Assembly: GCF_024502345.1 (NCBI RefSeq)
Contig: NZ_JALDNN010000001.1
Reading direction: 5' to 3' (one strand)
DNA from: Escherichia coli
Lineage (GTDB): Bacteria; Pseudomonadota; Gammaproteobacteria; Enterobacterales; Enterobacteriaceae
Length of the DNA stretch: 64,000 nt
In this document: piece by piece, positions 19,093 to 51,620 of the stretch
How positions within the stretch are numbered: position 1 is the first letter of the stretch
How the letters are laid out: every line of letters begins with the position of its first letter
Notes under the pieces: generated by a model
The model's input: only the letters and a program-made list of their open reading frames with translations
Told to the model about the DNA's origin: nothing
The model's database searches: none
Translations under genes and position numbers: made by a program

Positions 19093-20979
19093 TTACTCTT
19101 CCATCGCCTGGCGGATCTGATCCAACGACGCAGGATCATCAATGGTCGTCAGATCCCCAGGATCGCGTCCTTCGCAAATCGCCTGGATCGTGCGGCGCAG
19201 CATTTTTCCGGATCGCGTTTTTGGCAATTGCGAGACAAACCAGACGTGCGCCGGGCGACCAAAGTTGCCAATCTGGCTGTCCACCAGCGCCATAATTGCC
19301 TTCTCTTGCGAATGCGCCACATCACGATCTTCCAGACTGTCGCTCTCTTTCGGAATGACAAACGCCACCGCCACCTGCCCTTTCAGCGCATCTTTCACCC
19401 CAACCACAGCCACTTCGGCAACGCCCGGATGACTGGAGATACTCTCTTCAATCTCGCGCGTCCCCAGCCGATGCCCGGCAACGTTAATCACATCGTCAGT
19501 GCGCCCGAGAATAAAGTGATAACCGTCAGCATCGCGGATGCCCCAGTCAAAGGTGGCGTATACCGGGCGGGAAAACAGCGACCAGTACGTCTTCACAAAG
19601 CGGTCGTCGTCACCCCAGATGGTCTGAATACAGCCCGGCGGCAGCGGCCCTTCCACCACCAGCATCCCTTTCTCATTGACGCCACACGGCTCGCCGGTGA
19701 CTTCATTGAGCAACTGCACGTTGTAGCCATACATCGGCACGCCGGGGCTTCCCAGACGCGTCGGCCTGTCGTCCAGACCGCGAGCAATCGCCATAATCGG
19801 CCAGCCGGATTCGGTCTGCCAGTAGTTGTCGATAACCGGCACATCCAGCGTATTGCTTACCCAACTGGCGGTTGGCTCGTCCAGCGGCTCCCCCGCCAGA
19901 TAGAGTACTTCCAGCGACGAAAGATCGTGTTTGCGAATTTCAGCGGTAGGGAATTTTTTCAGCACGCGAATGGCGGTCGGCGCCGAGAACATCCGGCTAA
20001 CCTGATATTTCTCGACGATTTTCCACCACACGCCGCAGTCCGGCCAGGTCGGTAATCCTTCGTAAACGATAGTCGCCATCCCCGCCAGCAGCGGCGCGTA
20101 GACGATATACGAATGCCCCACCACCCAGCCGATATCCGAAGCACAAAAGAACACACCGCCCGCTTTGCCGCCAAAAATGGTGTCCATCGAGGTCGCCAGC
20201 GCCACCGCATATCCGCCGACGTCACGCTGCACGCCTTTAGGTTTGCCGGTTGTGCCGGAGGTGTAGAGAATGCAGGAGGTTTCGTTGGATTCCAGCCACG
20301 CCACCGGTACCCGCGCGCCGATGTGTTGATGGCGCAACGACGCGAAATCGACATCCCGCCCGCTGACGCGCGCCATTTTCGCCAGCCCGCGATCCACCAG
20401 CAAAACATGGCGCGGCTGGTGCTGCGCCTGACTTATCGCATCGTCGAGCAATTTTTTATAGGGAATGATTTTGCCACCGCGCGCTCCGGCATCAGCCGAG
20501 ACAATCAGCACCGGTTTAGCGTCATCAATTCGCGCCGCCACACTGTGCGAGGCGAATCCCCCAAACACCACCGAGTGAATAGCGCCAATGCGCGCGCAGG
20601 CCAGCAGGGTAATATGCGCTTCGGCAATCATCGGCATATACACCAGCACCCGATCGCCACGCTGCACGCCCAGTGAGCGCAGCATTGACGCCACCGCGTT
20701 CACTTCGTCATGCAGCTGGCGAAAGGTAAAGGTGCGCTCTTCTTCTGTTTCCGAAGAGACGGCAATCAATGCCAGCGCCTCTGGCTGTTTCTCCAGCCAG
20801 CGGTCGATAGCGTTGTGGCACAAGTTGGTTCGGCCTTCACAAAACCAACGGGCAAACGGCGGATTGCTGTGATCGAGCGTTTGCGTAAAGGGCGTCTGCC
20901 AGTCAATACGCCGGGCCTGCTCGGCCCAGAACTGCTCCGGTTCGTTAATCGAACGCTGATAAAATTCGCTAAAAGACAT
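19093..20979 (-). CDS. prpE: propionyl-CoA synthetase PrpE
   Basis: 628-aa ORF beginning MSFSEFYQRSINEPEQFWAEQARRIDW, with the AMP-binding motif YTSGTTGKPKG. Confidence 0.96.
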   Translation of the reverse strand: MSFSEFYQRSINEPEQFWAEQARRIDWQTPFTQTLDHSNPPFARWFCEGRTNLCHNAIDRWLEKQPEALALIAVSSETEEERTFTFRQLHDEVNAVASMLRSLGVQRGDRVLVYMPMIAEAHITLLACARIGAIHSVVFGGFASHSVAARIDDAKPVLIVSADAGARGGKIIPYKKLLDDAISQAQHQPRHVLLVDRGLAKMARVSGRDVDFASLRHQHIGARVPVAWLESNETSCILYTSGTTGKPKGVQRDVGGYAVALATSMDTIFGGKAGGVFFCASDIGWVVGHSYIVYAPLLAGMATIVYEGLPTWPDCGVWWKIVEKYQVSRMFSAPTAIRVLKKFPTAEIRKHDLSSLEVLYLAGEPLDEPTASWVSNTLDVPVIDNYWQTESGWPIMAIARGLDDRPTRLGSPGVPMYGYNVQLLNEVTGEPCGVNEKGMLVVEGPLPPGCIQTIWGDDDRFVKTYWSLFSRPVYATFDWGIRDADGYHFILGRTDDVINVAGHRLGTREIEESISSHPGVAEVAVVGVKDALKGQVAVAFVIPKESDSLEDRDVAHSQEKAIMALVDSQIGNFGRPAHVWFVSQLPKTRSGKMLRRTIQAICEGRDPGDLTTIDDPASLDQIRQAMEE

Positions 20980-21018
20980 AATGCTCTCCTGTTGAACTTA
21001 CGCCTTACCGCCGTTTAC

Positions 21019-22470
21019 TTAAATGACGTACAGGTCGAGATACTCATTGACCGGCATCTGTTCCAGGCGAGCTCTGTCGAGAGAAACCTCCAGAATGCGC
21101 TGCTGTTGGCGTGTCGGGAACTGGCGCGCGAGATTGATTTTGAATTTATCCACCAGCTTCGGAATGCCATCCTGACGGCGACGAGCATGACCAATGGGGT
21201 ACTCCACCACCACTTCTTCAAAGCGCGTGCCGTCGGTGAACTCAAGGGTTATGGCATTGGCAATAGCGCGTTTTTCCGGGTCGTGGTAGTCAGCGGTAAA
21301 TGACGGATCTTCAAAGCAATTGATCTTCTCGCGCAGGGTGTCGATGCGTTTATCTTGCGCAACGTTGTCTTCGTAATCTGCCGCTGTTAAGCGCCCGAAC
21401 AGCAGCGGGATCGCCACCATGTACTGAATGCAGTGGTCGCGGTCTGCCGGGTTATTGAGCGGCCCCTTTTTGTCGATGATGCGAATACAGGCTTCGTGGG
21501 TGCGGATGGTCACTTTTTCGATATCTGCCGCCGTTTTGCCTGCTGCCTGCATCTGTTCATAGAGCGTCATCGCCGCTTCAACTGCCGTCTGGGAGTGGAA
21601 CTCCGCCGGGAAGGAGATTTTGAACAGCACATTTTCCATAACGTAGGAACCGTACGGACGCTGGAAGCGGAACGACTCACCTTTAAAGGAGACGTCGTAG
21701 AAGCCCCACACAGGCGCAGTCAGGGCTGACGGGTAACCCATTTCGCCCGTTTTCGCCATCAGTGCCAGACGTACCGCGCGAGAAGTGGCATCGCCCGCCG
21801 CCCAGGATTTACGCGTACCGGTGTTCGGCGCATGGCGATAGGTGCGCAGCGACTGACCGTCCACCCACGCCAACGAAACGGCGTTGAGAATTTCCTCGCG
21901 GGTCAGACCGAGCATTTCGGCGACCACGGCGGTGGAAGCCACTTTCACTAACAGAACGTGGTCGAGGCCGACGCGGTTAAAGGAGTTTTCCAGCGCGATG
22001 CAGCCCTGAATTTCATGGGCTTTGATCATTCCGGTCAGCACTTGTTTCATGGTCAACGGCGCTTTGCCGCTGGCGACCGCATTGCGTGAAAGCCAGTCCG
22101 CCGTTGCCAGAATGCCGCCGAGGTTGTCGGAAGGATGGCCCCACTCTGCCGCAAGCCAGGTATCGTTGAAATCGAGCCAGCGGATCATCGCGCCGATGTT
22201 AAATGCCGCCTGGACGGGGTCGAGCTGGAACTGAGTTCCGGGGACGCGCACGCCGTTAGGTACGACGGTGCCGGGGACAATTGGCCCCAGCAGTTTTTTA
22301 CAGGCTGGGTATTCGAGAGCTTCAAGACCGCAGCCGAGCGTGTCGAGCAGGCAGAAATGTGCGGTGTCGTAGGCCACTTTAGAGCTGATTTCGTAGTTCA
22401 TCACGTAATCGACGATATCAACGATTTCACGATCAAATTCCGGGCGGATGTTGTTGATTTGAGCTGACAT
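21019..22470 (-). CDS. prpD: 2-methylcitrate dehydratase PrpD
   Basis: 483-aa ORF beginning [23 protein letters not shown]. Confidence 0.96.
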
Positions 22471-22503
22471 TGGGTACGTTTCCTTATTGTTATTCGTAGA
22501 GGT

Positions 22504-23673
22504 TTACTGGCGCTTATCCAGCGCGACAAACTGGCGGTCTTCCGGTCCAACATAATTGGCGGAAGGACGGATAATTTTGTTGTCCTGACGTTGTTCGATA
22601 ATGTGCGCCGCCCATCCGGTGACGCGGGCGATAACAAACAGTGGTGTGAACATCTCGGTGGGAACGCCCATCATGTTGTAGGAAACAGCGGAGAACCAGT
22701 CGAGATTGGGGAACATCTTTTTGCTCTCCCACATCACCGTTTCCAGACGATCGGCGATGTTGTACATCTTCAGCGAGCCGCCTTCCTGCGAGAGCTGCTT
22801 CGCCACACGTTTAATCACCTGGTGGCGCGGGTCGGCGATGGTATAAACCGGATGCCCAAAACCAATGACCACTTCTTTGTTTTCCACGCGCTTGCGGATA
22901 TCTGCTTCGGCTTCGTCTGGCGTTTCGTAGCGTTGCTGGATCTCCAGCGACACTTCATTCGCCCCGCCGTGTTTCGGCCCGCGCAGTGCGCCAATCGCGC
23001 CAATAATCGCGGAATACATATCAGAGCCAGTACCCGCAATCACCCGGCTGGTAAAGGTGGAGGCGTTAAACTCGTGTTCGGCGTACAGCACCAGCGAAAT
23101 ATGCATCGCCTTTTCCCAGCTTTGCGACGGCTTTTCGCCGTGCAGCAGATGCAGGAAGTGACCGCCGATGGAGTCGTCATCGGTTTCCGGCTGGATGCGT
23201 TCGCCGTTGTGGCTGTAGTGATACCAGTAGAGAAGAATCGAGCTAAGTGACGCCAGCAATTTGTCGGCAATATCCCGCGCGCCAGAGACGGTATGCCCCT
23301 CTTTTTCTGGCAGCGTGCAGCCGAGCGCGGAAACGCCGGTGCGCATAACATCCATCGGGTGTGACGCCGCCGGTAAGGCTTCCAGCACGGTACGCACGTT
23401 AGCCGGTAAACCGCGCAGGGCTTTCAGTTTCGTTTTGTAAGCGGCGAGTTCGTCACGGGTCGGCAGTTTGCCGTGGATCAGCAGATGCGCCACTTCTTCA
23501 AATTCGCAATGTTCCGCCAGATCAAGAATATCGTAACCACGGTAATGCAAGTCATTGCCACTTTTACCCACGGTGCAGAGCGCCGTATTGCCCGCCGGAA
23601 CGCCAGAAAGTGCTACCGATTTTTTCGGTTTAATGACATGGGTACTGTTTTGCAGGATCGTTGTGTCGCTCAT
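22504..23673 (-). CDS. prpC: 2-methylcitrate synthase PrpC
   Basis: ORF 22504..23802. The start was taken at [24 protein letters not shown] (389 aa). The longer ORF reads through a REP element. Confidence 0.95.
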
Positions 23674-23704
23674 ATTGTCCTCGTCATTGTTATCATTTGT
23701 AGGG

Positions 23705-23815
23705 TCGAGATTGTTGTCGGATGCGACGCCATGCGTCTTATCCGACCTACAGTTCAGTACACCCGTAGGCCTGATAAGTCGCGTCAGCGGCGCATCAGGC
23801 ATCGGTTGTCGAATA
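23705..23815. repeat. BIME/REP pair between prpB and prpC
   Basis: gtcggatgcgacgccatgcgtcttatccgacctac is followed by gtaggcctgataagtcgcgtcagcggcgcatcaggc. Confidence 0.8.
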
Positions 23816-23832
23816 CAACCAACGGGCGTTTT

Positions 23833-24723
23833 TTATTTCACCTGGCTACGGGCAAACAGGTCGTCGAGCTTCTCTTCGTACTGGTAGTAGTTGATGCTTT
23901 CGTACAGCTCGTTGCGGGTTTGCATAGTGTCGATGACACTTTTCTGCGTGCCTTCCTGACGCAGGACGTTGTAGACATGTTCAGCGGCGCGGTTCATGGC
24001 GCGGAACGCTGAAAGCGGGTACAGCGCCATTGCGACATGGGCGCTGCGTAATTCGTCGGTGGTAAACAGCGGCGTGGCACCAAATTCGGTAATGTTGGCG
24101 AGGATTGGCACCTGCACCGCATCGGCAAACTGGCGGTACATGGCGAGTTCGGTAATCGCCTCCGGGAACAACATCTCGGCACCCGCTTCAACATAGGCCT
24201 GCGCACGCTCGATCGCCGCATCCAGCCCCTCTACCGCCAGCGCATCGGTGCGCGCCATGATCACAAAATCAGGATCGGTTTTCGCATCCACCGCTGCACG
24301 GATCCGATCCACCATCTCCTCTTTCGAGACGATCGCTTTGTTCGGGCGATGACCGCAACGTTTCGCGCCAACCTGATCTTCAATATGCAATCCTGCCGCA
24401 CCGGCTTTAATCATCGATTTCACAGTGCGCGCCACGTTAAAAGCCGAAGATCCAAAACCGATATCCGCATCCACCAGCAGCGGCAGCGAGCAGACGTCGG
24501 TGATACGGCGAATGTCAGTCAGCACATCATCAAGAGTAGAAATACCGAGATCGGGCAGCCCCAGCGAACCTGCCGCCACACCACCGCCGGAGAGATAAAT
24601 CGCCTGATATCCGGCACGCTGCGCCAGCAGCGCATGGTTAGCGTTGATGGTGCCGACAATCTGCAATGGATTTTCTTTAGTGAGTGCAGCGCGAAACGCT
24701 TTACCTGGAGAGTGTAGAGACAT
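23833..24723 (-). CDS. prpB: 2-methylisocitrate lyase PrpB
   Basis: 296-aa ORF beginning [39 protein letters not shown]. Confidence 0.96.
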
Positions 24724-24769
24724 AGCCCATCCTTTGTTATCAACTTGTTATTTACGTTGATAAAGACAA

Positions 24770-24785
24770 AGCAAGGGGTGTGCCA
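24770..24785 (-). promoter_or_regulatory. sigma54 (-24/-12) promoter of prpBCDE
   Basis: The minus strand reads TGGCACaccccTTGCT, a perfect TGGCAC-N5-TTGC, about 45 nt upstream of the prpB ATG. Confidence 0.85.
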
Positions 24786-24961
24786 CAATTGCCTGAATAA
24801 AATTAAATGCTTAATTTCAATTTGTTAGAGATAAACCCATGAATTAATCCGCAAATATGCGTTTCAGTTAACGTTTCAGGCAATGTTTCACTGCGTTTCA
24901 TTGCAACAATTATGAAACAAGACTAAACCCACTATTCGGTTTCTTAACTTTGCGGTGCGCT

Positions 24962-25096
24962 ATGGCACATCCACCACGGCTGAATGACGACAAACCGGTT
25001 ATCTGGACGGTATCTGTAACGCGGCTGTTCGAGCTGTTTCGCGATATCAGTCTCGAGTTTGATCACCTGGCGAACATTACCCCTATCCAGCTTGGC
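24962..25096 (+). pseudogene. prpR: prpR' : the first 45 codons of the sigma54-dependent activator PrpR, cut by IS1
   Basis: [45 protein letters not shown] runs directly into the IS1 terminal repeat ggtgatgctgccaactta at 25097. Confidence 0.9.
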
Positions 25097-25151
25097 GGTG
25101 ATGCTGCCAACTTACTGATTTAGTGTATGATGGTGTTTTTGAGGTGCTCCA

Positions 25152-25427
25152 GTGGCTTCTGTTTCTATCAGCTGTCCCTCCTGTTCAGCTACTGACGGGG
25201 TGGTGCGTAACGGCAAAAGCACCGCCGGACATCAGCGCTATCTCTGCTCTCACTGCCGTAAAACATGGCAACTGCAGTTCACTTACACCGCTTCTCAACC
25301 CGGTACGCACCAGAAAATCATTGATATGGCCATGAATGGCGTTGGATGCCGGGCAACCGCCCGCATTATGGGCGTTGGCCTCAACACGATTTTCCGCCAT
25401 TTAAAAAACTCAGGCCGCAGTCGGTAA
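25152..25427 (+). CDS. insA: IS1 InsA
   Basis: 91-aa ORF beginning [43 protein letters not shown]. Confidence 0.95.
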
Positions 25428-25849
25428 CCTCGCGCATACAGCCGGGCAGTGACGTCATCGTCTGCGCGGAAATGGACGAACAGTGGGGATACGTCGGGGC
25501 TAAATCGCGCCAGCGCTGGCTGTTTTACGCGTATGACAGGCTCCGGAAGACGGTTGTTGCGCACGTATTCGGTGAACGCACTATGGCGACGCTGGGGCGT
25601 CTTATGAGCCTGCTGTCACCCTTTGACGTGGTGATATGGATGACGGATGGCTGGCCGCTGTATGAATCCCGCCTGAAGGGAAAGCTGCACGTAATCAGCA
25701 AGCGATATACGCAGCGAATTGAGCGGCATAACCTGAATCTGAGGCAGCACCTGGCACGGCTGGGACGGAAGTCGCTGTCGTTCTCAAAATCGGTGGAGCT
25801 GCATGACAAAGTCATCGGGCATTATCTGAACATAAAACACTATCAATAA
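25346..25849 (+). CDS. insB: IS1 InsB frame, expressed as the InsAB' transposase by a -1 frameshift
   Basis: 167-aa ORF in the -1 frame relative to insA. It overlaps the A6C motif. Confidence 0.9.
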
Positions 25850-25864
25850 GTTGGAGTCATTACC

Positions 25865-26518
25865 CGCTTTGTCGATCAGATCTCCGGCGGGCAGCAGCAG
25901 CGCGTGGCGCTGGCCCGCGCGCTGATCCTCAAGCCGAAAGTGCTGCTGTTTGATGAGCCGTTGAGTAACCTCGACGCCAACCTGCGTCGCAGCATGCGCG
26001 ACAAGATCCGCGAGTTGCAAAAGCAGTTTGATATCACCTCGCTGTACGTCACCCACGATCAGAGCGAAGCCTTTGCGGTTTCTGATACTGTGCTGGTGAT
26101 GAACAAGGGACACATCATGCAGATCGGCTCACCGCAGGATCTTTACCGCCAGCCCGCCTCCCGCTTTATGGCGAGCTTTATGGGCGATGCCAACCTGTTC
26201 CCGGCAACCTTCAGCGACGGATACGTTGATATCTACGGCTATCATCTGCCGCGCCCGCTGCACTTTGGTACACAGGGTGAAGGGATGGTCGGTGTGCGCC
26301 CGGAAGCGATCACGCTCAGCGATCGCGGCGAAGAGAGCCAGCGCTGCGTGATCCGCCATGTCGCCTATATGGGGCCGCAGTATGAAGTGACGGTGGAATG
26401 GCACGGGCAGGAGATATTATTGCAGGTCAACGCTACGCGTCTGCAACCGGACGTCGGCGAGCAGTATTATCTTGAAATCCATCCGTACGGCATGTTTGTT
26501 CTGGCGGATGCGGCATAA
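25865..26518 (+). pseudogene. afuC: 'afuC : 5'-truncated ABC-transporter ATPase (ferric-uptake type)
   Basis: The frame is open from the first base after IS1: RFVDQISGGQQQRVALARALILKPKVLLFDEPLSNLD (ABC signature plus Walker B). The Walker A half is missing. Confidence 0.85.
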
Positions 26519-26524
26519 CGTTTT

Positions 26525-26605
26525 GTGGTTTTGTAGGCCGGATAAGGCGCTTGTGCCGCCATCCGGCAATGCCTGATGCGCTGCGCTTATCAGGCCTACA
26601 ATGAA
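26525..26605. repeat. BIME/REP pair between afuC' and mmuM
   Basis: gtaggccggataaggcgcttgtgccgccatccggc is followed by gcctgatgcgctgcgcttatcaggcctac. Confidence 0.8.
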
Positions 26606-26626
26606 CGATGTAGACCCGATAAACCC

Positions 26627-27559
26627 TCAGCTTCGCGCTTTTAACGCGGCGATATCCGCAGGCGTGGTGCGACAGCACCCGCCAATCAACCGTGCGCCAG
26701 CGGCCTGCCACTGCGGCAGATAATCCGCCAGCTGCGCGCAATGTTCACCGTGATGATGCCAGGTTTTGCTCACGGCATCGTAATGCTCGCCCGAGTTCGG
26801 ATACACCACCAGCGGCAGCACCGTTAAACCGTGTAAATGCTGCAACGCAGCGGTGGTGTTTTCCAGCGCAATACAGTTAATGCCTAGCGCCACCACCTGC
26901 GGATAACCCGCCAGCAACGCAACCACGTCACGCAGCGGCGTACCGTCGCTCAGGTGTTCGCTGTCGCGCAGGGTAAATGAGAACCACGCCCGCGCACGCG
27001 GATATGCGGTCAACAGCTCGGCCAACGCCTCAATCTCGGAAAAATTCGGCAGGGTTTCGCAGGCCAGCAGATCGGCCCCGGCATCCAGCAAGGCTTCCAC
27101 GCGCGGGCGATGAAACGCCTGAAATGCCTCAACGCTACAATGATAATCGCCACGGTATTCAGAGCCATCCGCCAGATACGCGCCGTAAGGCCCGACGGAT
27201 CCCGCCACCAGAAGCGTTCCCGCCTGCGGGTTCTCTGCCAGATACGCTTCACGGGCTTTACGCGCCAGCTCCACGCTTTTGCCAATCAGCGCTTTCGACT
27301 GCGCTTCATCCAGACCTCGCGCGGCGAAGCCCGCCGGCGTCGCCTGATAGCTGGCAGTGATCGCGCATTGCGCCCCCGCCCGGTAGTAATCAAGATGCAC
27401 TTCGCGGATAAGCTCCGGGTTTTCTACCAGCACTTTGGCTGACCACAGGCTGTCGGCTAAGTTACACCCTCGCGCTTCCAGCTCCGTCGCCATCGCGCCA
27501 TCCAGCAGCAGGATATCCTGTTTATCAAGAAGAGCGCGTAACGGATTATTCTGCGACAT
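26627..27559 (-). CDS. mmuM: homocysteine S-methyltransferase MmuM
   Basis: ORF 26627..27703. The start was taken at [28 protein letters not shown] (310 aa). It overlaps the mmuP stop. Confidence 0.93.
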
Positions 27560-28949
27560 GTTCTGGCTCCTGTTTTGCGTTTCGGGGTTGAGTAAGGAAA
27601 TAAGCACCATAGCACAACGCAACAAACGGTAACCCGCACCACAACGCAATTCTCTGCGCTGGATCGAATGCCAGCCCAACACAGGCCACCAGGCACAGCA
27701 CAAAACCTAATACTGGCACCAGCGGATACCACGGCGCGCGATAATGTAATTCACTCAATGCCTTACCTTGTTGCAGATGACGGCGACGAAAAACAAAATG
27801 CGAGGCGCAGATACTCAGCCACACCGCTACCACCGCAAACCCGGAGATTGCCGACAGCGCAACAAATACCGTGTCCGGGGCCACCACGCTGGAAAACAGC
27901 GCCAGCACACCACCGAGCATACTGACCGACAGCGCCGTCAGTGGCACGCCGTTTTTCGTTACTCGCGCAAAACAGGCCGGTAGCGTACGTTCATTCGACA
28001 ACGACCACAGCATGCGCCCGGAGGCATATAACCCGGAGTTCGCTGCAGAAAGAATAGCCGTCAGGATCACGAAGTTAAAAATATCAGCGGCGTACGGGAT
28101 CCCTACTTTCTCAAATACCAGCACAAACGGGCTTTTCTCCACGCCCGCCTGCTGCATCGGGATCAGCGCTGCCAGCACAAACACGGTGCCGATAAAGAAA
28201 ATAATCAGTCGCGCGATGGTAGTACGAATCGCTACCGGGATAACTTTGCGCGGGTTTTCCGTTTCACCGGCGGCAATGCCGATAAGCTCGGTACCCGAAA
28301 AAGCAAAGTTCACTGCCACCATAGTCATCAAAATCGGTAAGCCACCGTGCGGGAACCAGCCTTCTGCCGTGATATTACTCAGCCCCGGCGCGGGCGAGCC
28401 ATCCTGCATCGGAATAAAGCCGAAAATCGCCGCCCCACCGAGGATGATAAAGGCGATGATAGTGACCACTTTGACCAGCGAGAACCAGAACTCCCCTTCG
28501 GCAAAAAAGCGCGTGGAGATAACATTCAGACCAAAAATAATCGCGCAGAACACCACGCACCAGACCCATACCGGCACCTGTGGAAACCAGTACTGCATAC
28601 AGAATCCAGCGGCGGTAAAGCTCGAACCCAGCGCCACGGTCCAGGTCAGCCAGTAAAGCCAGGCCACGGTATACCCGGTAGCCGGACCAAGATAGCGCGC
28701 GGCATAAACGTGAAACGCTCCGGTCTCCGGCATCGCGACCGACAGCTCGCCCAGACACTGCATAACCAGCCAGACCACCAGCGCACCAATCAGATAGGCC
28801 AGCAGCGTTCCCGCCGCTCCAGTGGTGGAAATGATGTACCCGGTATTGAAGAATAATCCTGTGCCAATCACGCCGCCCAAGGAAAGCATAATCAGGTGAC
28901 GCGTTTTCATTGTGCGCTTCAGTGGCGCATTTTGTTGTGTTGTTTGCAT
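27546..28949 (-). CDS. mmuP: S-methylmethionine permease MmuP (APC family)
   Basis: ORF 27546..28973. The start was taken at [34 protein letters not shown] (467 aa). Confidence 0.93.
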
Positions 28950-29223
28950 ATAACCTTCTAAACGCATGGACATCTAAACATCCAAAGAAGGTTTGTTATA
29001 CCGCGTTTGTTAACAGAATGCAAAGTCAACCCTGCACCAGACGCAGATGCCCGCGCCGGGCGCTTAATAGCGGGTGGGGATTAATAATCAGATACAAAAA
29101 GGGCCGCCAGCTCATAACGCCTCCGTTGCCATGTTTTATCTAAACTTTGGCACCACAGTTGACTGACGGCGTTAACCCGGAAGTGGGAATCAAATCTCCC
29201 CACTCCCACAACCGGATGAATGC

Positions 29224-30435
29224 TTAAGCACCGCTGGCCGGGATCGGCATCTGTGATTTGCGGCTCATCAGAATAAATACCGCCAGGCCTGCCAGCAAAA
29301 TGCCCGGCGCAGAAGCCGCCATCACCCCTACCCTTCCGGTACCGAGCGCTAACATTTTCCCTGCCAGCAGCGGACCGCTCATCGCCCCCAGACGCCCGAC
29401 TGCGACGGCGGTTCCCACGCCTGTGGCGCGGATCTGCGTGCTGTAAAACAGCGGCGCCAGCGCATACAACACACTTTGCCCGCCGGTGGCGAACATCCCC
29501 GCCACAAATCCCGCCATTAGCATGCCGCTCAATGACGACACCGTACCCAGCGCCAGCAGTGAAGCCAACATCCCGGTGTAGATCAGCAGCGACATCACCA
29601 CCGGGCGCAGTTTATCCATTAACGCCCCGAGAATTAACGTGCCGCTGGCCGCGCCAATTTGCAGAGCAAACATTACGCCTGCCGCCTGCGATGGCCGAAA
29701 GCCCTGCTCCACCAGCAGCATCGGCAGCCAGTTGATCAGCATATACACCACCAGCAGGGTGAAGAAATAGCACAACCACAGCAGCAGCGTGGCACTCGCC
29801 GTCGCTGGCGCAAACAGGGCGCGCAACGGTGCGGCGGCCACCTGCGTTTGTTGGGTATAAACCTGAGATTCCGGCAGCCAGCGCATCAACAGCGGCACCA
29901 GCAGCAGCGGGATCACCCCGCCTACCCAGAACACCGTTTGCCAGGCGGAGGCCAGGCCGCTAAACCCGAGCGCTGCCGCCAGCGCCGCGCCAATCGGCAC
30001 ACCGCAGTACATCAGGCTCACCGCCGTACCGCGAAAACGCGGGCCCGCCGCCTCGGAAGTCAGCGCGATCAGATTCGGCAACGCCGCGCCCAGCCCGACG
30101 CCGGTCATCAGACGGGCAAACACCAGCGATGAGAAATCCCAGGAAATCGCCGTCGCCAGCGAGAACAGGCCGAACAGCGCCACAGAGGCAATGAGAATAC
30201 GCTTGCGGCCATAGCGGTCGGCCAGCATGCCGCCCACCAGCGCGCCGGGCAGCAGCCCGAGAATGCCCGCACTGAAGATCCAGCCCATCTGCATTTTATC
30301 CAGCGCAAACGCGTGGGCGATACCGACGGCAGCGATACCGGCGGCCTGTAAATCCAGCCCTTCCATCAGGGCAACTAAAAAGCAAAGCCCAACGGTCAAC
30401 GTCAGGCGGTAAGATGCGGAGGTACGGGTCGTCAT
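29224..30435 (-). CDS. mhpT: MFS transporter, MhpT-like (3-hydroxyphenylpropionate transporter), second-copy cluster
   Basis: ORF 29224..30501. The start was taken at MTTRTSASYRLTLTVGLCFLVALMEGLDLQAAGIA (403 aa, the same length as K-12 MhpT as I recall it). It sits directly downstream of the second mhpE. Confidence 0.85.
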   Translation of the reverse strand: MTTRTSASYRLTLTVGLCFLVALMEGLDLQAAGIAAVGIAHAFALDKMQMGWIFSAGILGLLPGALVGGMLADRYGRKRILIASVALFGLFSLATAISWDFSSLVFARLMTGVGLGAALPNLIALTSEAAGPRFRGTAVSLMYCGVPIGAALAAALGFSGLASAWQTVFWVGGVIPLLLVPLLMRWLPESQVYTQQTQVAAAPLRALFAPATASATLLLWLCYFFTLLVVYMLINWLPMLLVEQGFRPSQAAGVMFALQIGAASGTLILGALMDKLRPVVMSLLIYTGMLASLLALGTVSSLSGMLMAGFVAGMFATGGQSVLYALAPLFYSTQIRATGVGTAVAVGRLGAMSGPLLAGKMLALGTGRVGVMAASAPGILLAGLAVFILMSRKSQMPIPASGA

Positions 30436-30504
30436 AAGATGTCCCTCTGAGGTCACGATGCAGGTGAATCGCGGCTGATACGTTGCCAGCCGCGTAATCA
30501 TTTT

Positions 30505-31514
30505 TTATTTGCGGTTGCGCAGGTCCAGCGCTACGTCGACGATCATATCTTCCTGGCCGCCCACCATCCGACGTTTGCCCAGTTCCACCAGAATATCTAC
30601 TGCGCTCAGGCCATAACGTGCTGCCGCCACTTCGCAATGACGCAGAAAACTGGAGTACACCCCGGCATAGCCCAGCGCCAGCGTTTCACGATCCACCCGC
30701 ACCGGGCGGTCTTGTAGTGGACGCACTAAATCGTCGGCGGCGTCCATCAGTGCGTAGAGATCGGTTCCGTGCTGCCAACCAAGCTTATCCGCAGCGGCGA
30801 TAAATACCTCCAATGGTGCGTTGCCCGCGCCTGCGCCCATCCCTGCCAGGCTGGCGTCGACACGGTCACACCCCTCTTCTACTGCGGCAATCGAGTTCGC
30901 CACCCCAAGACTCAGGTTGTGATGCGCATGCATTCCGGTTTCTGTTTCAGGCTTCAGCACCGCTTTCAGTGCGCGGAAGCGGGCGCGAATATCGCTCATG
31001 TTCATTGCGCCGCCGGAATCGACCACATAAATACAGGTCGCGCCGTAGTTTTCCATCAGCTTCGCCTGCTGTGCCAGGTTCTCCGGTGTGGTCATATGGC
31101 TCATCATCAGAAAACCGACGGTATCCATGCCAAGCTCACGCGCATACTGAATATGCTGGGCCGACACATCCGCTTCAGTGCAGTGGGTCGCCACGCGCAC
31201 TACCCGTGCGCCGGCCTGATATGCATTTTTCAGGTCATGAATAGTGCCGATACCCGGCAGCAACAGCGTGGCAATTTTGGCATGCTTCACCACGTCCGCC
31301 GCCGCTTCAATCCACTCCAGGTCGCTGTGTGCACCAAAGCCGTAGTTGAAGCTGGAACCTTGTAAACCGTCGCCGTGGGCCACTTCAATAGAATCAACCC
31401 GTGCGTCGTCCAGCGCTTTGGCTATCTGGCGCACATTCTCCAGCGAATATTGATGACGAATAGCGTGCATACCGTCGCGCAGGGTCACGTCAGAGATATA
31501 GAGTTTTTTACCGT

Positions 31515-31518
<4 letters not shown>
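30505..31518 (-). CDS. mhpE: 4-hydroxy-2-oxovalerate aldolase MhpE, second-copy cluster
   Basis: 337-aa ORF beginning [25 protein letters not shown]. Its start overlaps the stop of the second mhpF. Confidence 0.92.
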
Positions 31519-33280
<1,762 letters not shown>

Positions 33281-34147
33281 TTAAGGGCGTGTGAGGAAAT
33301 TCAGCACCAGTTGGTTAAAGGCATCCGCATGTTCCCACTGCGCCCAGTGCCCGCAGTCGCGGTAGATGTGCAGTTCAGAACCGGCAATCCCAGAAAGCAG
33401 GCGCAGACCGGCATCCATCGGCACAAAGCGGTCATTGCGTCCCCAGACAATCAGGGTCTGGGCTTTGATTTCACCCAGACGCGGGCTGAAATCCGGGAAC
33501 TGTTTCGGGTTGGCCTCCAGACTCTGGACAAAGTTTTCCAGGTGATCGCGACGCGACAGCATGTTATTCAGGCGCGCCTTAAACAACGCCTCGGTCAGGT
33601 CGCTGGTGTCGAAGACAAAGATCTCCATCATCAGCTTCAGGTTCTCGATGGTCGGCTCACGATACAGCTGATTCAGGCGCTTGATACCTTCGGTCGGCAT
33701 CGGGGTAAACAGGCTCATGCCGCCCGTTCCGCCGCCCATTAATACCAGTTTGCCCACGCGCTCCGGCCAGCTCAGGGTAAACGCCACAGCACTGTGACCG
33801 CCCATCGAGTTACCCAGCAGGTGGACTGTTTGAATATCCAACTGATCGACCACGCTTTTCAGGATGCGGGCGTTGAGATCGGATCGCGAACCGCGGTTAA
33901 CGATCCCATCGCTTTTGCCCCAGCCAGGACAATCCAGCAGGATCACCCGGTATCCGGCCTGTACCAACGGATCGATATTACGGCTGAAGTTTGCCCAGCC
34001 CGTCGCGCCAGGACCAGAGCCATGCAACAGCACGACGGTCTCATCGCCCTGCCCACAGTCATTGAAATGCACGCGTAGGGTTTCGCCTGCTTCCTGCACT
34101 TCCAGAAAACGACTGGTAGCGGCTTCGGTTTGCGGTTGGTAAGTCAT
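33281..34147 (-). CDS. mhpC: MhpC hydrolase, second diverged copy
   Basis: The start was taken at [28 protein letters not shown] (288 aa). GNSMGG is conserved. Confidence 0.92.
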
Positions 34148-34175
34148 GATGTTCTCCTGCATATTCAGTTCTGTT

Positions 34176-35129
34176 TTAGTTCTGTGTAGTGGCGCTCAGG
34201 GAGCCGAATCCGGCGATCCACTCCGGGATCGGGCGGTAATAACGGCCTTCGCTGCGCCAGTTGCCAAAAGCAGAAATGGCGGCAAAGGCGGCAAAGGCGG
34301 CAACCCAGGTTTTCACTTCGTGCGTTGATTTGCCCGCCATCGCGGACAGCTCTTCGTTACTGACCGCGTCCAGCCCCTGCAAACGCCCCTGCTCAAGCAG
34401 GGACATAAAACGGTTATCCCAGACAGGGTTAAGCGGGTGTAGCGTGTTTTGATCGACCACAAACTTCTCGGCGGCGCTGATCACCCGCTGCTGGCGCAGC
34501 TCGCGCTCGTTTTCAGGTAACTGTTTGCCACTGCCGAGCAGGCGGTCACGCATATGGGCATCAGCCTTCGCCAGCTCCGGTACCGGCGGCTGATGCGATA
34601 GCCCGCCGGAGCCTAAAAACAGCACGCGCTTATTCAGCGAGCTGGCGAAACGGCCAATCGCTTCACCGAGCATGCGGGTACGCTGAAAGCCCGGCAGCGG
34701 CGTTGCGACGCCGTTAATAAACACTGGCAGCACCGGCACCTTATCCAGGCCGCCGAGCAAAAACTCCAGCGGCTGCGCGAAGCCATGATCGACCTGCATG
34801 TTGTAGGACACGGCGAGATCGATACCGCTTTTCATTACCGCGTGGGCGCAGGCTTCAGCCAGATCTGTCGGCACCGGTAATTCCCCCGCCGCGCTACCAA
34901 AATCGCCGATCGCCGTAGCGCCAACGCCTAAACAGAACGGCGGCATCACGTCGTAGGAAAATCCGTTGTAGTGATCGGGGGCAAACAGCACGACCAGTTC
35001 AGGTTCGAACGCCGCAATACGTGCCCGAGCGCTGGCGATCACGCCATTAACCTCGTCGAGCACAGCCTGTGCCGGGTCGACATAGCCCACCAGCGGCGAG
35101 TGGGAAAGACAGTGAAGATAAGCGTGCAT
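34176..35129 (-). CDS. mhpB: MhpB dioxygenase, second diverged copy, with a 3-aa insertion
   Basis: The start was taken at [19 protein letters not shown]. It is 317 aa against 314 aa in copy 1; the extra AAF comes from a 9-bp tandem repeat at 34279-34296. Confidence 0.9.
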
Positions 35130-35130
35130 A

Positions 35131-36515
35131 TCAGGCAACCTTTTCAACAGGAATGTCGGCAGTAGCGCGAGTGAGCGTCATCACCGACGCCAGTTTATTC
35201 AGGGTGCTGCCCAGGGTTTGCGGAATGGCGATGGCGGCCACGAAGCGGTCCGGACGCATGACTACCAGCGCGGCGTTGTGCTGGGCAAACCACGCGCGCA
35301 GGCGGTTTTGCGTATCGCCTATGCGGGTAACGCCGTCGTGGTTATCCTGATCGGTATGTATCTGCGTATCCGGCACGACCTGGATAAAACGCGTCCCCAG
35401 CGCCTGCCACTGTTGGATCTGCGCCTCGCTCATGCCCCATAGTGGGTTACAGCCCCAGCCAATCACCGCAAAATTCGGTCCGATGACGTTGTCGAGCAAC
35501 GTCACTTCGCCCGATTCCAGCGTCACCTTCGGCTGGATAAACATCTTGCCGACCGGTGAAGTTTTCGCGTCGCCTTCACGCACCAGCGCCCCGGCGTGGT
35601 ACTGCGGCATCGGCTTAAACCGCATTTCAAGGAAGTAGCGTTTGACCGGCGGAATATAGTTCAACAGCCAGGAAACCCCATCGCGTACCGCGCCGTGCCA
35701 GCGTTTGGGCGGCGCAAGTACGTTGCCAGCGGTCACGGAGAGGTCGATCATCGCTTTGGCGTGGTCGCGGCGTTCCTGCTGGTAGGTATCCAACAGCGCA
35801 TCGTCGGCTTTACCGTTAATCACCAGCGCCAGTTTCCATGCCAGGTTGAAAGCATCGCGCATGCCGCTGTTGTATCCCTGACCCTGCCAGACCGGCATAA
35901 TGTGCGCCGCATCGCCCGCCAGCAGCACGCGGTCAATACGAAAACGTTCGGCCAGACGAGCATTATGGGTATACACGCGCTGGCGGATCAGCTCGACGTT
36001 GTCCGGGTTCGGCAGCACTTTGCTCAGTAACTGGCGCATATTCTGCGGCTCGCTAAGCTGCGCTTCGGTTTCCCCCGGCATAACCATAAACTCAAAACGG
36101 CGCACCGCGTGCGGCAGCGCGGCAGAGACATACGGGCGCACCGGATCGCAGCATAAATACACATGCGGCGTGCTGAGCGGATCGTTGGCGATATCCACCA
36201 CAATCCACTGATTCGGCGCGGTTTTACCTTCAAACGGCACGTTCAGAGAACGTCTGACGTTGCTGCCGCCGCCGTCGCAGGCCACCAGCCACTGAGCCTT
36301 CACCGTTTCACGTTGACCGTCTGGCGCTTTCAGATTTAGCGTCACTTCGCCGTTTTGTTGGCTGAAGGCCTCCAGCTCGCGGGAGAACAGGCAGCGCACG
36401 TTGGGAAAACGCGACAACCCTTCCAACATCACCGCGTCCACCTGCGGCTGAATAAACGCATTACGACGCGACCAGCCAAATTCGTCGGTCATCGGCTGGA
36501 TATCAGCAAAGCAAC
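35131..36515 (-). pseudogene. mhpA: mhpA' second copy, with the 5' end (about 94 codons including the FAD GxGxxG motif) removed at the IS30 junction
   Basis: The frame reads (C)[27 protein letters not shown] and abuts the IS30 end at 36516. Copy 1 has 101 residues before the equivalent Met. Confidence 0.9.
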
Positions 36516-38646
<2,131 letters not shown>

Positions 38647-39905
38647 AACAGTCACCGAACTCGATAATAAAGCGACTCATGGCTATCCGCCAGTCCTGAA
38701 GTGGCATCGTCCATTTCTGTGAGGCTGACTGGATAGCCAGCCTCATCACTTTTTTCACCGATTCATCTATCGGGAACACTTTCCGTTTCTTTATCGCATG
38801 TCTGATGACGCTATTCAGCGATTCGATTGCGTTAGTGGTGTAGATAACCTTGCGGATCGCCTCCGAATACACGAAGAAGGTGGCAACATTCGGCCAGTTT
38901 GCCCGCCAGCTGCGACTTATCTGCGGGTACCGTGCATCCCATTCCTTCCCGAACGCATCCAGCGCCTGCAACGCGCCTTCTTCCGTGGCTGCGCGGTAAA
39001 CCTGTTTCAGGTCACGGGTTACCGCTTTATAGTCTTTCCACGCCAAGAACCGCAGGCTGTTGCGTGCCATGTGTACTATGCACAACTGGATCTGCGTCTC
39101 CGGGTAGACGGCATTAATCGCTTCCGGGAAGCCTTTCAGGCCGTCCACACAGGCGATAAGGATATCGTTCAGCCCGCGATTTTTCAGTTCCGTCAGTACA
39201 TTCAGCCAGAACTTTGCACCTTCATTTTCGGCCAGCCACATACCTGGCAGCTCTTTCTGACCATCAAGGTTAATACCCAGAGCCAGGAACACCGCTCTGT
39301 TGATAACCCGGCTGTCCTGCCGTACTTTCAGGACAATACATTCAAGATAAACAATGGGATAAATCGCATCCAGAGGACGGTTTTGCCATTCTACAACCTG
39401 GTCGATTGCGGCATCGGTGACTTTCGATATCAGCGCCGGAGAGACGTCTGCATCGTACATTTCTTTGAAGACTGAGGTAATTTCGCGGGTAGTCATCCCT
39501 CTGGCATACAGCGCCAGGATCTGGTTGTCCATGCCGGTAATGCGGGTCTGATTTTTCTTCACCAGTTGTGGTTCGAAGGAACCATCACGATCACGTGGAG
39601 TACGTAATTCCATCGGCCCGTCGGTAGTGGTGACGGTTTTCGTGGAATAGCCATTACGGGAGTTGGTTCCCGATTTGGGCTGATTTTTTTCATGTCCCAG
39701 ATGGTGAGTCAGTTCAGCGTTGAGAGCAGCCTCAACACTGATTTTCTTGAGCAGGCGATCGAACTGACTGAGATCTTCAGGGATTTTGAGATTTTTGGCC
39801 AGTTCGTTAGCCAGAGCCTGCAATTGTTTGTCGTCCATAATTTAACCTTCATTTGATGTTGAATTGAACATATCAAAATCAGGCAATTACACAAATATAT
39901 GTACA
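38647..39905 (-). mobile_element. IS256-family (Mutator-type) element, 3'-truncated; the outer end is approximate
   Basis: The minus-strand ORF begins MDDKQLQALANELAKNLKIPEDLSQFDRLLKKISVEAALNAELTHHLGHEK...GYSTKTV...CIVHMARNS. The C-terminus after RFIIEFGD reads into IS911 sequence. An AT-rich leader ends near 39905, where GC content jumps. Confidence 0.75.
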
Positions 39906-40025
39906 GGCTCGCACCTGGGCTTGCCTGACTGACCGCAGGCCGGCGACGACAAGGTGGAAAAGTTCGGCGTGTGGCTCTGGCGGCAACGATCCCGCGAAGG
40001 GCGGACGGTGCTTGAGCTGTTGAAC

Positions 40026-40428
40026 GTAAGCATGCGGGCAAACCATCTTGCGCGACTATGCCGGATGCCACCTATGCGGCAGCAGCTCTGCAATCTCACT
40101 AGCTCGCTGCGTCGGCAACCGTCTCAGCACATCCTTGAGATAGGCATACGGATCGTGCCCATTATTACGGGCCGACTGGATCAAACTCATGATCGCAGCA
40201 GCGCGCTTGAGCATGCGAACCCGCGCCGAGCATTTGAGAAGGCAACGGGATGAACGCTGGCTGGATAGCCGTGGTTTTCTGGGTAAGCAGGCGAATCCAT
40301 TTGTGGACGAGGTTGGCATTGAGGCTGTAGCCCAAGGCGATGTTTGCGATGGAGGCACCGGGTTCAGAACACTCCTGAATGACCTGGGCCTTGAAAGATT
40401 TGCTGTAGGTACGGCGCTGAGGGCGCAT
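40026..40428 (-). mobile_element. IS66-family relic: the start of tnpA fused by deletion to the C-terminal tail of tnpC
   Basis: The minus strand reads MRPQRRTYSKSFKAQVIQECSEPGASIANIALGYSLNANLVHKWI (from 40428), and then ...MSLIQSARNNGHDPYAYLKDVLRRLPTQRASEIAELLPHRWHPA*. GTAAGC, which I recall as the typical IS66 terminus, is at 40026. Confidence 0.65.
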
Positions 40429-40935
40429 GGAAAATCCGCTTGATGGGCCATGGCCTTCGGCGGCGGTGTCGGGAAGGTGTGTTGGCCGGACGGATACTGT
40501 TGAACTACGTTGTCTGGGGCAACGGAAGTGTTTCGGCCCGACTCTGGAACGCGATCCGCAGCGACGACTGGGCAATTCCGCACGTTGGCCTGAGCAGCCT
40601 CGGGGAAATCGTCGTCTGGGCGCGCCCAGACGAGTTTCCGCCAAGGAACATGCAGACAAGCAAGGGGCTGCGGGCACTCGGCTACAACGTGAGGATCGGT
40701 GTTTGATCGAGGCGCCTGTGGCACACGCAGGCTGAGGAGCCAGGCGCTGTCCATTGCCTGATCAGGCCGCCCCCCTGTGCCTTGCCTGAGCAGTTGACCT
40801 GCATCAATGGGGCGGGAGAACGCTGCACATTGCACTCTTGACTCCTGAAGTTTTTCATGGTAAGCCTAATATTACAAAGTATTGCAAGGATTTCCTTGGC
40901 CGGAACCGCAAAGCGACGCGATTGGAGAGGGTGAG

Positions 40936-41217: not shown

Positions 41218-41251
41218 GTAACTCGTTTTCCAATTTTTCTGGAGGTATGAC

Positions 41252-41821: not shown

Positions 41822-41926
41822 CGTCGCCGGCTCGTTCGTCACAAGAAAAACCCGTCCCGAGACGAGGTGTCGCGGCTCGCGATGCCTCGTCGCCTCAACC
41901 TTTTCAACCTTCTAAGGAGCATCAGC

Positions 41927-51617: not shown

Positions 51618-51620
51618 CCG

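Follow-up and report, generated by a model that had tools for sequence, protein, structure and literature searches.

Within the 64-kb stretch of Escherichia coli DNA analysed here (the window), a single IS1 element joins two pieces of chromosome that do not belong together (Table 1). To its left lies prpR, broken off after codon 45 and preceded by the divergently transcribed prpBCDE operon, and to its right lies the middle of afuC, of which the last 217 codons are left, followed by mmuM and mmuP. A first-pass annotation of this DNA had described the element at 25097-25864 as complete and its flanks as unrelated, and our data agree on both counts. IS1 measures 768 bp, opens with ggtgatgctgcc at 25097 and closes with gtcattacc at 25864, and it has what defines the family - imperfect terminal inverted repeats of about 23 bp (GGTGATGCTGCCAACTTACTGAT, GGTAATGACTCCAACTTATTGAT) at the ends of a body of about 768 bp, the insA and insB' frames, the A6C site and the DDE_Tnp_IS1 domain - except for the 8-9 bp direct target duplication. 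The 9-mers adjoining its ends, cagcttggc (25088-25096) and cgctttgtc (25865-25873), are unrelated, hence there is no target-site duplication and the same annotation was right to argue against a simple insertion. This concerns where the element sits rather than what it is: it does not occupy a simple insertion site, and its identity as IS1 is unaffected. It is the only IS1 copy in the window. Compared with K-12 IS1B it differs at 2 of 768 positions, and it is identical over all 768 to the IS1 found at 'afuC in AH04, CX12 and G3/10, whereas the IS1A copies of AH04 differ at 7-9 positions.

Table 1. Features around the prpR'::IS1::'afuC junction of the window and their K-12 counterparts.
Feature	Position	Strand	Basis or remark
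prpBCDE operon	19093..24723	-	all four frames intact
prpE	19093-20979	-	same length as K-12
prpD	21019-22470	-	same length as K-12
prpC	22504-23673	-	same length as K-12
prpB	23833-24723	-	same length as K-12
prpB-prpR divergent control region	24724..24961	.	IHF-consensus match near prpB, repeated GTTTCA motifs
sigma-54 -24/-12 element of prpB, TGGCAC-N5-TTGCT	24770..24785	-	direct reading; K-12 spacer alignment
prpR remnant, 45 codons	24962..25096	+	translation; tblastn with K-12 PrpR
IS1, IS1B type, complete	25097..25864	+	direct reading, ORFs, Pfam
IRL of IS1	25097-25119		
insA of IS1	25152-25427		91 aa; Zn_ribbon_InsA and HTH_Tnp_IS1 (Pfam)
insB' of IS1	25346-25849		167 aa; DDE_Tnp_IS1 positions 1-131/131 (Pfam)
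A6C frameshift motif (AAAAAAC) of IS1	25403-25409		-1 frameshift site
IRR of IS1	25842-25864		
shared island starting at IS1	25097..59858	.	identity to AH04, annotations
'afuC (fbpC) remnant, pseudogene	25865..26518	+	C-terminal 217/348 residues of AfuC/FbpC
mmuM	26627-27559	-	coordinates transferred from AH04 annotation, 99.95% identity
mmuP	27546-28949	-	coordinates transferred from AH04 annotation, 99.95% identity
K-12 afuC	277756-278802	-	K-12 annotation
K-12 afuB'	278814-279162		K-12 annotation
K-12 IS1B	279163-279930		K-12 annotation
K-12 prpR	346857-348443	-	K-12 annotation

That PrpR is cut down to 45 residues, as claimed earlier, is borne out by its reading frame, which passes from the 45 prpR codons into IS1 and adds eight IS1 codons before a stop at 25121-25123. 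No Pfam domain was matched in the resulting 53-aa product, which lacks all three domains of the protein family - the PrpR_N sensor, the Sigma54_activat AAA+ domain and the DNA-binding HTH_8 - that full-length PrpR on related contigs has. Judged from its sequence, the prpR of the window is a remnant that would not encode a functional sigma-54-dependent enhancer-binding protein, and a tblastn search of the 64-kb window with K-12 PrpR as query found this stub only. As a separate observation, a frameshift allele of prpR also circulates.

The neighbouring operon is whole, as is its promoter, in line with what the first reading had stated of both. The four prpBCDE frames (for which Pfam assignments were taken on related contigs) differ from K-12 at 152 nucleotides, of which 135 are third codon positions, and their products differ at only 10 amino acids. 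The reverse complement of 24770-24785 reads TGGCACACCCCTTGCT, identical to K-12; it shows the GG at -24 and the GC at -12 of the TGGCAC-N5-TTGCW element, and 47 nt separate its end from the prpB ATG downstream. Of the 238-nt spacer between prpB and prpR, 230 positions are as in K-12, whose spacer contains the IHF consensus match TATCAACTTGTTA, and the GTTTCA repeats in this region are putative PrpR-binding motifs. When IS1 was scanned in a simple way for sigma-70 promoters that point out of the element at prpB, none turned up, and the scan picked out only the known inward promoter in IRL. Because the prpB promoter requires PrpR (PMC5566544) and the window has no second prpR, it is reasonable to predict that prpBCDE is silent and growth on propionate poor: a stub devoid of the sensor, AAA+ and DNA-binding functions would leave an intact operon behind a sigma-54 promoter that nothing can activate.

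On the other side of IS1, the 'afuC remnant starts at the ABC signature motif. It has no Walker A, and Pfam recognises only positions 107-136 of the 137 in ABC_tran together with TOBE_2, so the full set of Walker A, Q-loop, signature motif, Walker B and H-loop that defines AfuC/FbpC is not present; in AH04 and G3/10, PGAP calls this segment an incomplete protein with a TOBE domain. From 'afuC through mmuP the window is 99.94% identical to K-12, and mmuM-mmuP (26627..28949) are the conserved right neighbours of afuC, as in K-12 CP4-6. The K-12 coordinates bear out a statement in the earlier annotation, namely that prpR and afuC lie tens of kb apart in that genome with an IS1 beside afuB. This K-12 IS1B next to afuB' (CP4-6, b0263-b0265) resembles the IS1 of the window in position, orientation, near-identical sequence and its afuC-mmuM-mmuP neighbours, and the two differ in what adjoins their ends: the K-12 element has afuB' at its IRR and an IS30 fragment and yagB at its IRL, whereas in the window the IRR end is found 753 bp deeper, in afuC, and the IRL end abuts prpR.

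Mapped to K-12, the breakpoints of the window are 69,899 bp apart, i.e. 69.9 kb of K-12-equivalent DNA is gone at the junction. Since K-12 has prpR and afuC on its minus strand and the window has the two on its plus strand, in collinear order, the loss is a deletion and not an inversion. An inversion mediated by IS1, in which the rest of prpR and of afuC sits at another junction in the genome, would suit the missing target-site duplication just as well, as intramolecular IS1 transposition can either invert or delete; it should, however, have flipped one flank and added a second, inverted IS1, yet prpR' and 'afuC keep their K-12 strand and order and no such copy occurs in the window, which makes this scenario scarcely credible to our minds. 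Of the origins first offered for the junction - deletion, inversion or recombination between two IS1 copies - deletion thus stands, inversion falls with the collinear flanks on the same strand, and recombination is still a candidate (see below). To call the junction a large rearrangement, as was also done, is correct against K-12 only and not against strains with IS1::'afuC, which already lack most of the interval: the window lacks 3,280 bp more than G3/10 and 12,040 bp more than AH04.

An identical IS1::'afuC junction occurs in 9 of 5,426 complete E. coli genomes (AH04, AH02, CT01, CX08, CX12, G3/10, LHM10-1, A30 and CP52E), and the 204-aa ORF of this derived right junction is listed in 256 index blocks. 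Such strains, which carry a heat-resistance island 99.5-99.95% identical to that of the window, share its right junction and its IS1 but, unlike the window, have full prpR and other left flanks. When complete genomes, one metagenome contig and the window are taken together, the derived right flank is seen with five left flanks: one lies downstream of a lactate permease gene, and the others are mrkB', a point 375 bp beyond yahM, ykgB/rclC and prpR nt 135. The right flank in turn comes in two forms, the older IS1::'afuB (K-12, Z226-5, GCA_053109955) and the derived IS1::mid-afuC, 753 bp further on (window, AH04, CX12, G3/10, LHM10-1, L021, GCA_037080035, GCA_000768425). There are, in other words, five left flanks on one right flank and two right flanks on one left flank, a pattern of one constant and one variable flank that is the signature of adjacent deletion, and the original relative orientation is kept for prpR and afuC. 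Z226-5, which combines the lactate-permease left flank with the older 'afuB right flank, suggests that the right-side deletion took place before the left-side ones. The left endpoints in the backbone (ykgB; yahL/yahM at K-12 345,030; prpR at 348,308) are collinear and lie successively farther from IS1.

Our favoured reading, which we hold to be probable albeit by no means certain, is that a single resident IS1, the counterpart of K-12 IS1B, deleted outward from both of its ends. In a first step at the IRR end, the 753 bp that comprise the afuB remnant and the first 131 afuC codons would have been lost, and in a second, one or more later deletions at the IRL end would have removed everything up to prpR nt 135. 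Such losses are likely to be the work of IS1 transposase on a single DNA molecule, where intramolecular replicative transposition yields an adjacent deletion: the element would stay, its far flank would be unchanged, whatever lay between the IS end and the target under attack would be lost and no target-site duplication would form. Missing duplications are indeed reported to arise by adjacent deletion or by recombination between IS copies, and adjacent deletions to grow stepwise (PMC11708052). Microhomology between prpR and the older left flanks of IS1 was not found, and a literature search for prpR with IS1 returned nothing relevant.

The left junction, prpR'::IS1, is absent from the 5,426 complete E. 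coli genomes, from GTDB species representatives and from JGI metagenomes. It was seen independently on contigs of the window haplotype (L010, L011, L016, L056), and it is contained in no fewer than five further public data sets from the window lineage. An IS1 variant in P0002 was considered as an independent event and rejected, its contig L056 being the window haplotype with one base change and of the same lineage. Exact look-ups of PrpB and PrpE, and nucleotide comparison of the loci derived from PrpB, yielded no close relative of the window lineage in which prpR is intact; PrpB and PrpE of the window are widespread alleles, with 37,656 and 26,399 index blocks, respectively.

In public assemblies, the identical prpR'::IS1-IRL junction is present on at least three prp haplotypes - that of the window lineage, one identical to K-12 and a third type - which differ by 2-4% to within 9 nt of the junction. 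It is conceivable, and we suggest it only tentatively, that prpR nt 135 is a nucleotide-precise, recurrent target of IS1, with independent, convergent loss of the propionate activator in unrelated E. coli that may be selected in some niche. At nt 135, 27 intact genes showed no SNP, and a survey of 3,008 genomes gave no C-to-T change. As for what might attract IS1, IHF consensus matches occur only in the prpB-prpR spacer and not near prpR nt 135, and the best ungapped score of the prpR target against the IS1 ends was 7, a value reached by 62% of random backbone windows. Hypothetical fusions of prpR to a reversed IS1, or to one displaced by 3 nt, were absent from the collection. Contigs that stop at prpR nt 133-134 (a 44-aa partial protein, 87 index blocks) were rejected as extra evidence for a hot spot because partial PrpR fragments come in many lengths, from 28 to 56 aa.

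Recurrence at nt 135 fits equally well a two-step route, in which IS1 inserts at this position with a 9-bp duplication (CAGCTTGGC) and then recombines with the directly repeated IS1 at 'afuC so that the DNA between them is deleted and one hybrid IS1 is left. Such a route can draw on IS1::'afuC existing separately with other left flanks, on both flanks being in the direct order it demands and on the three or more prp haplotypes with prpR'::IS1, one of them identical to K-12, which indicate that IS1 reaches nt 135 repeatedly. A simple prpR::IS1 insertion was, however, not found, the left junction being present in 0 of 5,426 complete genomes, nor is the reciprocal junction of such an insertion present in JGI metagenomes. 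Moreover, the IS1 of the window is uniform with the resident 'afuC copy and free of IS1A-type differences (a weak argument, since those differences all fall within about nt 265-450 and a crossover to their left would leave no trace), and the four other left flanks of IS1 are more simply seen as one-ended deletions. We therefore take insertion followed by recombination seriously as an option but regard it as rather unlikely.

A more trivial explanation would be that two IS1 copies, in prpR'::IS1::X and Y::IS1::'afuC, were collapsed into a false adjacency during assembly. A repeat of 768 bp fragments assemblies of short reads or joins them wrongly, all public contigs from the window lineage end inside IS1 and both flanks are linked in the window assembly alone; in addition, contig L014 looks like a chimera of this type, in which IS1 is followed by a plasmid-borne gene for a chemotaxis protein. 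(As this metagenome contig is probably chimeric through IS1, its right flank was rejected as a different partner.) Each junction is, however, real by itself, both flanks follow the K-12 order and agree with the deletion series of complete genomes, and there is one IS1 only in the 64 kb, all of which renders an assembly artefact very improbable.

The IS1 also marks a step in sequence identity. To its right the window is 99.8-99.95% identical to AH04, compared with 96.5-98.1% over 1-25096, and the backbone on its left is at most 97.7-98.6% identical to any complete genome. The genome is neither K-12 nor B, its backbone being that of a divergent E. coli lineage, and we propose that the island on the right - 'afuC-mmuMP, a second mhp cluster, IS30, the locus of heat resistance and CP4-6-like genes through ykfI - was acquired horizontally. 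Could the junction then be an insertion, with the heat-resistance island moved into prpR as an IS1-bounded composite element or via a cointegrate? The identity step falls exactly at the IS1 end, the island is common to unrelated backbones, and AH04 has a second IS1 at the far end of its CP4-6-like segment. This second copy, however, is a simple insertion with a duplication of its own (cacattgcc) and has no counterpart in the window; toward ykfI the island is still ordered and oriented as in K-12, neither the 3' part of prpR nor a second IS1 occurs in the 39 kb to the right, and other strains have the island in the same chromosomal location and an intact prpR. An IS1 composite transposon would show an IS1 on either side of the segment and one target duplication outside the pair, which is not what we see: the window has one IS1 and the island runs past its end. 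We judge insertion of the island very improbable. With outward deletion from a resident IS1, the left portion of the island and its original join to the backbone would have been erased, and that the IS1 end coincides with the identity step would follow from this.

Taken by itself, the event is ordinary IS-driven bacterial gene loss of the textbook kind. Its appeal is that it would offer a clear case from nature of an IS1 that made deletions from each of its ends, with intermediates kept in different strains, from K-12/Z226-5 via AH04/LHM10-1 to G3/10, CX12, L021 and the window. The junction also marks where the heat-resistance island begins on the left in this divergent E. coli lineage, and prpR'::IS1, found in 0 of 5,426 complete genomes and in at least five other data sets from that lineage, could be used to recognise it by PCR. 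The predicted phenotype, no propionate-induced methylcitrate cycle, would concern strains tied to food, wastewater or gut, where propionate is abundant. Recurrence on other haplotypes, if true, would be of interest for target choice by IS1.

Compared with known loss of prpR, the window allele shares that the sigma-54 enhancer-binding activator is gone and prpBCDE is whole, so the expected outcome is no propionate induction via 2-methylcitrate; it differs in being a natural allele, probably made by IS1 deletion. The closer parallel is with IS1-promoted adjacent deletions, the classic cases reportedly being those of the gal region described by Reif and Saedler (1975), and Ahmed is said to have used nested deletions from Tn9/IS1 for sequencing in the 1980s. 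In common with these, the IS is intact, one flank is fixed and the other variable in collinear DNA, there is no duplication and enlargement appears stepwise. Ours, by contrast with a laboratory selection, is a natural chromosomal series reconstructed across strains, from which we infer the mechanism, and it would have involved both ends of the same element.

Re-reading the sequence bears out how the first-pass annotation had described the parts of this junction: a complete IS1 with codon 45 of prpR on its left and afuC on its right, whose adjoining 9-mers (cagcttggc on the left, cgctttgtc on the right) are unrelated, leaving no target-site duplication. Each IS1 product matches its family (InsA or IS1 DDE transposase) from end to end, and no second IS1 lies within the 64-kb window. 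The prpR frame reads through 8 codons of IS1 to a stop at 25121-25123, giving a 53-aa product in which no recognisable domains were found, and the 'afuC remnant lacks Walker A, its first residues being the ABC signature motif. The K-12 arrangement is the reverse complement of the window, with IS1 in the same orientation relative to afuC; the window copy differs from K-12 IS1B at 2 of 768 positions, and 'afuC-mmuM-mmuP is 99.94% identical between the two. The K-12 map given in the annotation, with prpR and afuC tens of kb apart and an IS1 near afuB/afuC, proved right, as the breakpoints map to 278,410 and 348,308 (distance 69,899 bp) and IS1B abuts afuB'. Since K-12 strand and order are preserved in both flanks, the event is a deletion. 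Hence, of the options that had been offered (deletion, inversion or IS1-IS1 recombination), IS1-associated deletion holds, while inversion, which would have flipped one flank, is ruled out.

Coordinates of features in K-12 and in the window
Feature	Sequence	Position	Strand or context
afuC	K-12	277756-278802	minus
afuB'	K-12	278814-279162	minus
IS1B	K-12	279163-279930	IRR end abuts afuB'
prpR	K-12	346857-348443	minus
REP-like units, tandem, ~94 nt	window	18737-18973	prpE-codB
REP-like units, tandem, ~99 nt	window	23713-23811	prpB-prpC
prpR remnant, 45 codons	window	start 24962	left of IS1
IS1, complete, 768 bp	window	25097-25864	both terminal inverted repeats present
insA	window	25152-25427	in IS1
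insB'	window	25346-25849	in IS1
A6C frameshift site	window	25403	in IS1
'afuC/fbpC remnant, last 217 of 348 codons	window	25865-26518	right of IS1
Second mhp cluster	window	29224-36513	in island, beside mmuP
IS30	window	36516-37738	at cut end of second mhpA
Locus of heat resistance, complete	window	41252-55949	
ClpK	window	41927-44809	locus of heat resistance
FtsH-like protease	window	45061-46788	locus of heat resistance
KefB-GI	window	51621-53336	locus of heat resistance

Of 5,426 complete E. coli genomes, not one has the left junction, and nine have the right junction at the identical nucleotide: it is 100% identical in strains G3/10, AH04, AH02, CT01, CX08 and CX12, and is also present in LHM10-1, A30 and CP52E, which carry a 7-nt deletion inside their IS1. 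A public assembly index lists the 204-aa 'afuC-remnant ORF in 256 blocks. Reading junctions base by base together with annotations, we find IS1 between an IS30 fragment and 'afuB in K-12 and GCA_053109955, and between DNA downstream of the lactate permease gene and the same, older 'afuB flank in Z226-5. AH04, LHM10-1 and GCA_037080035 share the left flank of Z226-5, and their right flank lies 753 bp further, in mid-afuC. Mid-afuC is likewise the right flank in CX12, G3/10, a metagenome contig (L021) and the window, where IS1 is preceded by mrkB', by DNA 375 bp past yahM (K-12 345,030), by ykgB/rclC and by prpR nt 135, respectively. IS1 is identical at 768/768 positions among the window, AH04, CX12 and G3/10, whereas IS1A copies of the same genomes differ from it at 7-9 positions; together with the junction series, this shows that one IS1 has exchanged its neighbours on both sides without itself moving. 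Its left endpoints in collinear backbone (ykgB, yahL/yahM, prpR) each lie farther from IS1 than the last, and the window's is the deepest among those found. The large rearrangement proposed at first is thus large relative to K-12 (69.9 kb) but not a single large event, because the shared right junction speaks for a stepwise history: most of the interval is already missing in strains with that junction, and the window lacks a further 3,280 bp compared with G3/10 (the prpR 3' part, yahO, yahN, yahM) and 12,040 bp compared with AH04. In CX12 (locus L002, 5388-12769) and CX08, an IS1A and the IS1 at 'afuC flank a fimbrial mrk cluster of Klebsiella type (mrkI', mrkJ, mrkF, D, C, B'), in what looks like an IS1-mediated acquisition beside the same element.

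With the 53-aa fusion ORF as a precise tag of the left junction, we recovered it on independent contigs that have the window's haplotype (L010, L011, L016, L056), so the junction is real and its lineage is circulating; isolate assembly GCA_017173755.1 (L055) ends 2 nt before IS1. The tag also lies on another prp haplotype (L009, identical to K-12 across 1.1 kb), on a third (L012, L013) and on further prp types (L014, L015) that are possible assembly chimeras. For the T haplotypes, a graph artefact borrowed from the window lineage is ruled out, since a C/T difference 9 nt before the junction falls within every 31-mer spanning it. Judged from these contig sequences, IS1 is joined to prpR at exactly nt 135 in at least three backgrounds; microhomology, an IHF site and likeness to IS1 ends were sought at this position and none was found. 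Alternatively, and to our minds less probably, IS1 could first have inserted at prpR nt 135 and then recombined with the copy at 'afuC; this would be the main competing route to the window's arrangement. Differences informative of IS1 isoform are confined to ~nt 265-450, and the window copy is uniform; among the complete genomes and PrpB-derived loci compared, no relative of its own lineage with intact prpR was found. Separately, many public contigs (L050-L054; 87 index blocks, at least five haplotypes) stop at prpR nt 133-134; a search for a SNP at nt 135 that would explain this found none. Because PrpR fragments come in many lengths, assembly noise may account for such stops.

The left end of IS1 coincides exactly with a step in identity: window 1-25096 reaches only 96.5-98.1% identity with AH04 and G3/10, whereas 25097-59858 matches AH04 at 99.8-99.95% over ~35 kb. 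No close relative of the backbone (mhp, lac, cyn, cod, prp) exists among the 5,426 complete genomes (best matches 97.7% for prp and 98.6% for lacI-codB), and the window genome is neither K-12 nor B. Its backbone proteins are common alleles despite the divergent nucleotide sequence. The right-hand DNA is a CP4-6-type island comprising 'afuC-mmuMP, the second mhp cluster, IS30, the locus of heat resistance (clpK and neighbours) and CP4-6-like genes up to ykfI. As AH04 and G3/10 have this island in common despite backbones that differ by 1.3-2%, it moves between lineages; the IS1 junction doubles as the border of this horizontally acquired island. That the island entered prpR as a composite transposon is unlikely, however: AH04's far IS1, which the window lacks, is a simple insertion flanked by a duplication of its own, no 3' prpR fragment lies further right in the window, and in other strains the island occupies the same chromosomal position and prpR is intact. 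In Z226-5, AH04 and LHM10-1 the shared DNA extends left of IS1 into a module of lactate-utilisation, dld and lactate-permease genes plus ISKpn26. The window lacks both this module and the original island-backbone join, which a leftward deletion from IS1 into native DNA would erase.

Within the island, the locus of heat resistance (transmissible locus of stress tolerance) is 99.8% identical to that of E. coli AH04 and also encodes sHSP20, sHSP-GI, YfdX1/2, HdeD-GI, Trx-GI, PsiE-GI, HtpX and a DegP-like protease. Relative to AH04, an in-frame 33-nt tandem duplication at the clpK 3' end (44706-44746) repeats 11 residues in the ClpK C-terminal tail (960 vs 949 residues). The second mhp cluster, common to AH04, G3/10, LHM10-1 and Z226-5, consists of mhpT, E, F, D, C, B and a truncated mhpA and shares only 82.6% identity with the native mhp genes next to lacI (1-5090). 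The IS30 at its end is missing in AH04 and CX12, and present but itself interrupted in G3/10, LHM10-1 and Z226-5. At ~59700-64000 two CP4-like islands stand tail to tail, with ykfI/yafW facing a cbtA-type toxin-antitoxin pair; Z226-5 and Z226-6 have the same island pair (99.9% identity) plus an Ag43-type autotransporter gene missing in the window.

As first annotated, prpBCDE keeps its sigma-54 promoter (TGGCACACCCCTTGCT, the reverse complement of 24770-24785) and PrpR is cut to 45 residues, a stub without the PrpR_N, AAA+ and HTH domains seen in the full-length protein. The prpB-prpR spacer (238 nt) is as in K-12 at 230 positions, and the frames of prpB, prpC, prpD and prpE are open over their full length. 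These genes differ from K-12 at 152 nucleotides, 135 of them at third codon positions, and in 10 amino acids, so they were under purifying selection until recently. PMC5566544 describes PrpR as the sigma-54 activator essential, with 2-methylcitrate and IHF, for the prpB promoter, crediting Horswill and Escalante-Semerena 1997 and Palacios and Escalante-Semerena 2000 for this requirement. With PrpR a stub, no other prpR copy within the 64-kb window and, in a simple scan, no sigma-70-like promoter directed outward in the stretch from IS1 to prpB, it is a sound prediction that prpBCDE would be silent and growth on propionate lost. prpR is rarely lost structurally: 5,218 of the 5,426 complete genomes have a single piece covering at least 80% of the gene, only 6 have a partial match and 202 have no match. 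A second natural null allele, a 49-aa frameshift (...GFEKQ*) in the PrpR N-terminus cluster P0005, occurs on 8 contigs, one of them chromosome-sized (4.8 Mb), and is consistent with loss of G145 after an A-run. The REP-like units in the operon region vary in copy number among strains, and alignments are broken there.

At its core the original reading is supported: a deletion associated with IS1, in which the prp activator was lost. The IS is kept, one flank is constant, the other has variable collinear endpoints and a target-site duplication is absent, which together form the signature of IS-promoted adjacent deletion. On this pattern, we consider it rather probable that the last step was such a deletion, by intramolecular transposition of IS1. 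A small deletion from the IRR end came first, and the IRL end later underwent changes of varying length. IS copies without duplications are explained in a review by adjacent deletion or IS-IS recombination, and adjacent deletions are described as enlarging stepwise (PMC11708052). The recurrent prpR nt 135::IS1 junction is the sole part of our finding beyond the ordinary, the type of event being already well known. Indeed, promotion of adjacent deletions is a long-known property of IS1, reportedly described by Reif and Saedler in 1975, and Ahmed is said to have obtained nested deletions promoted by this element.
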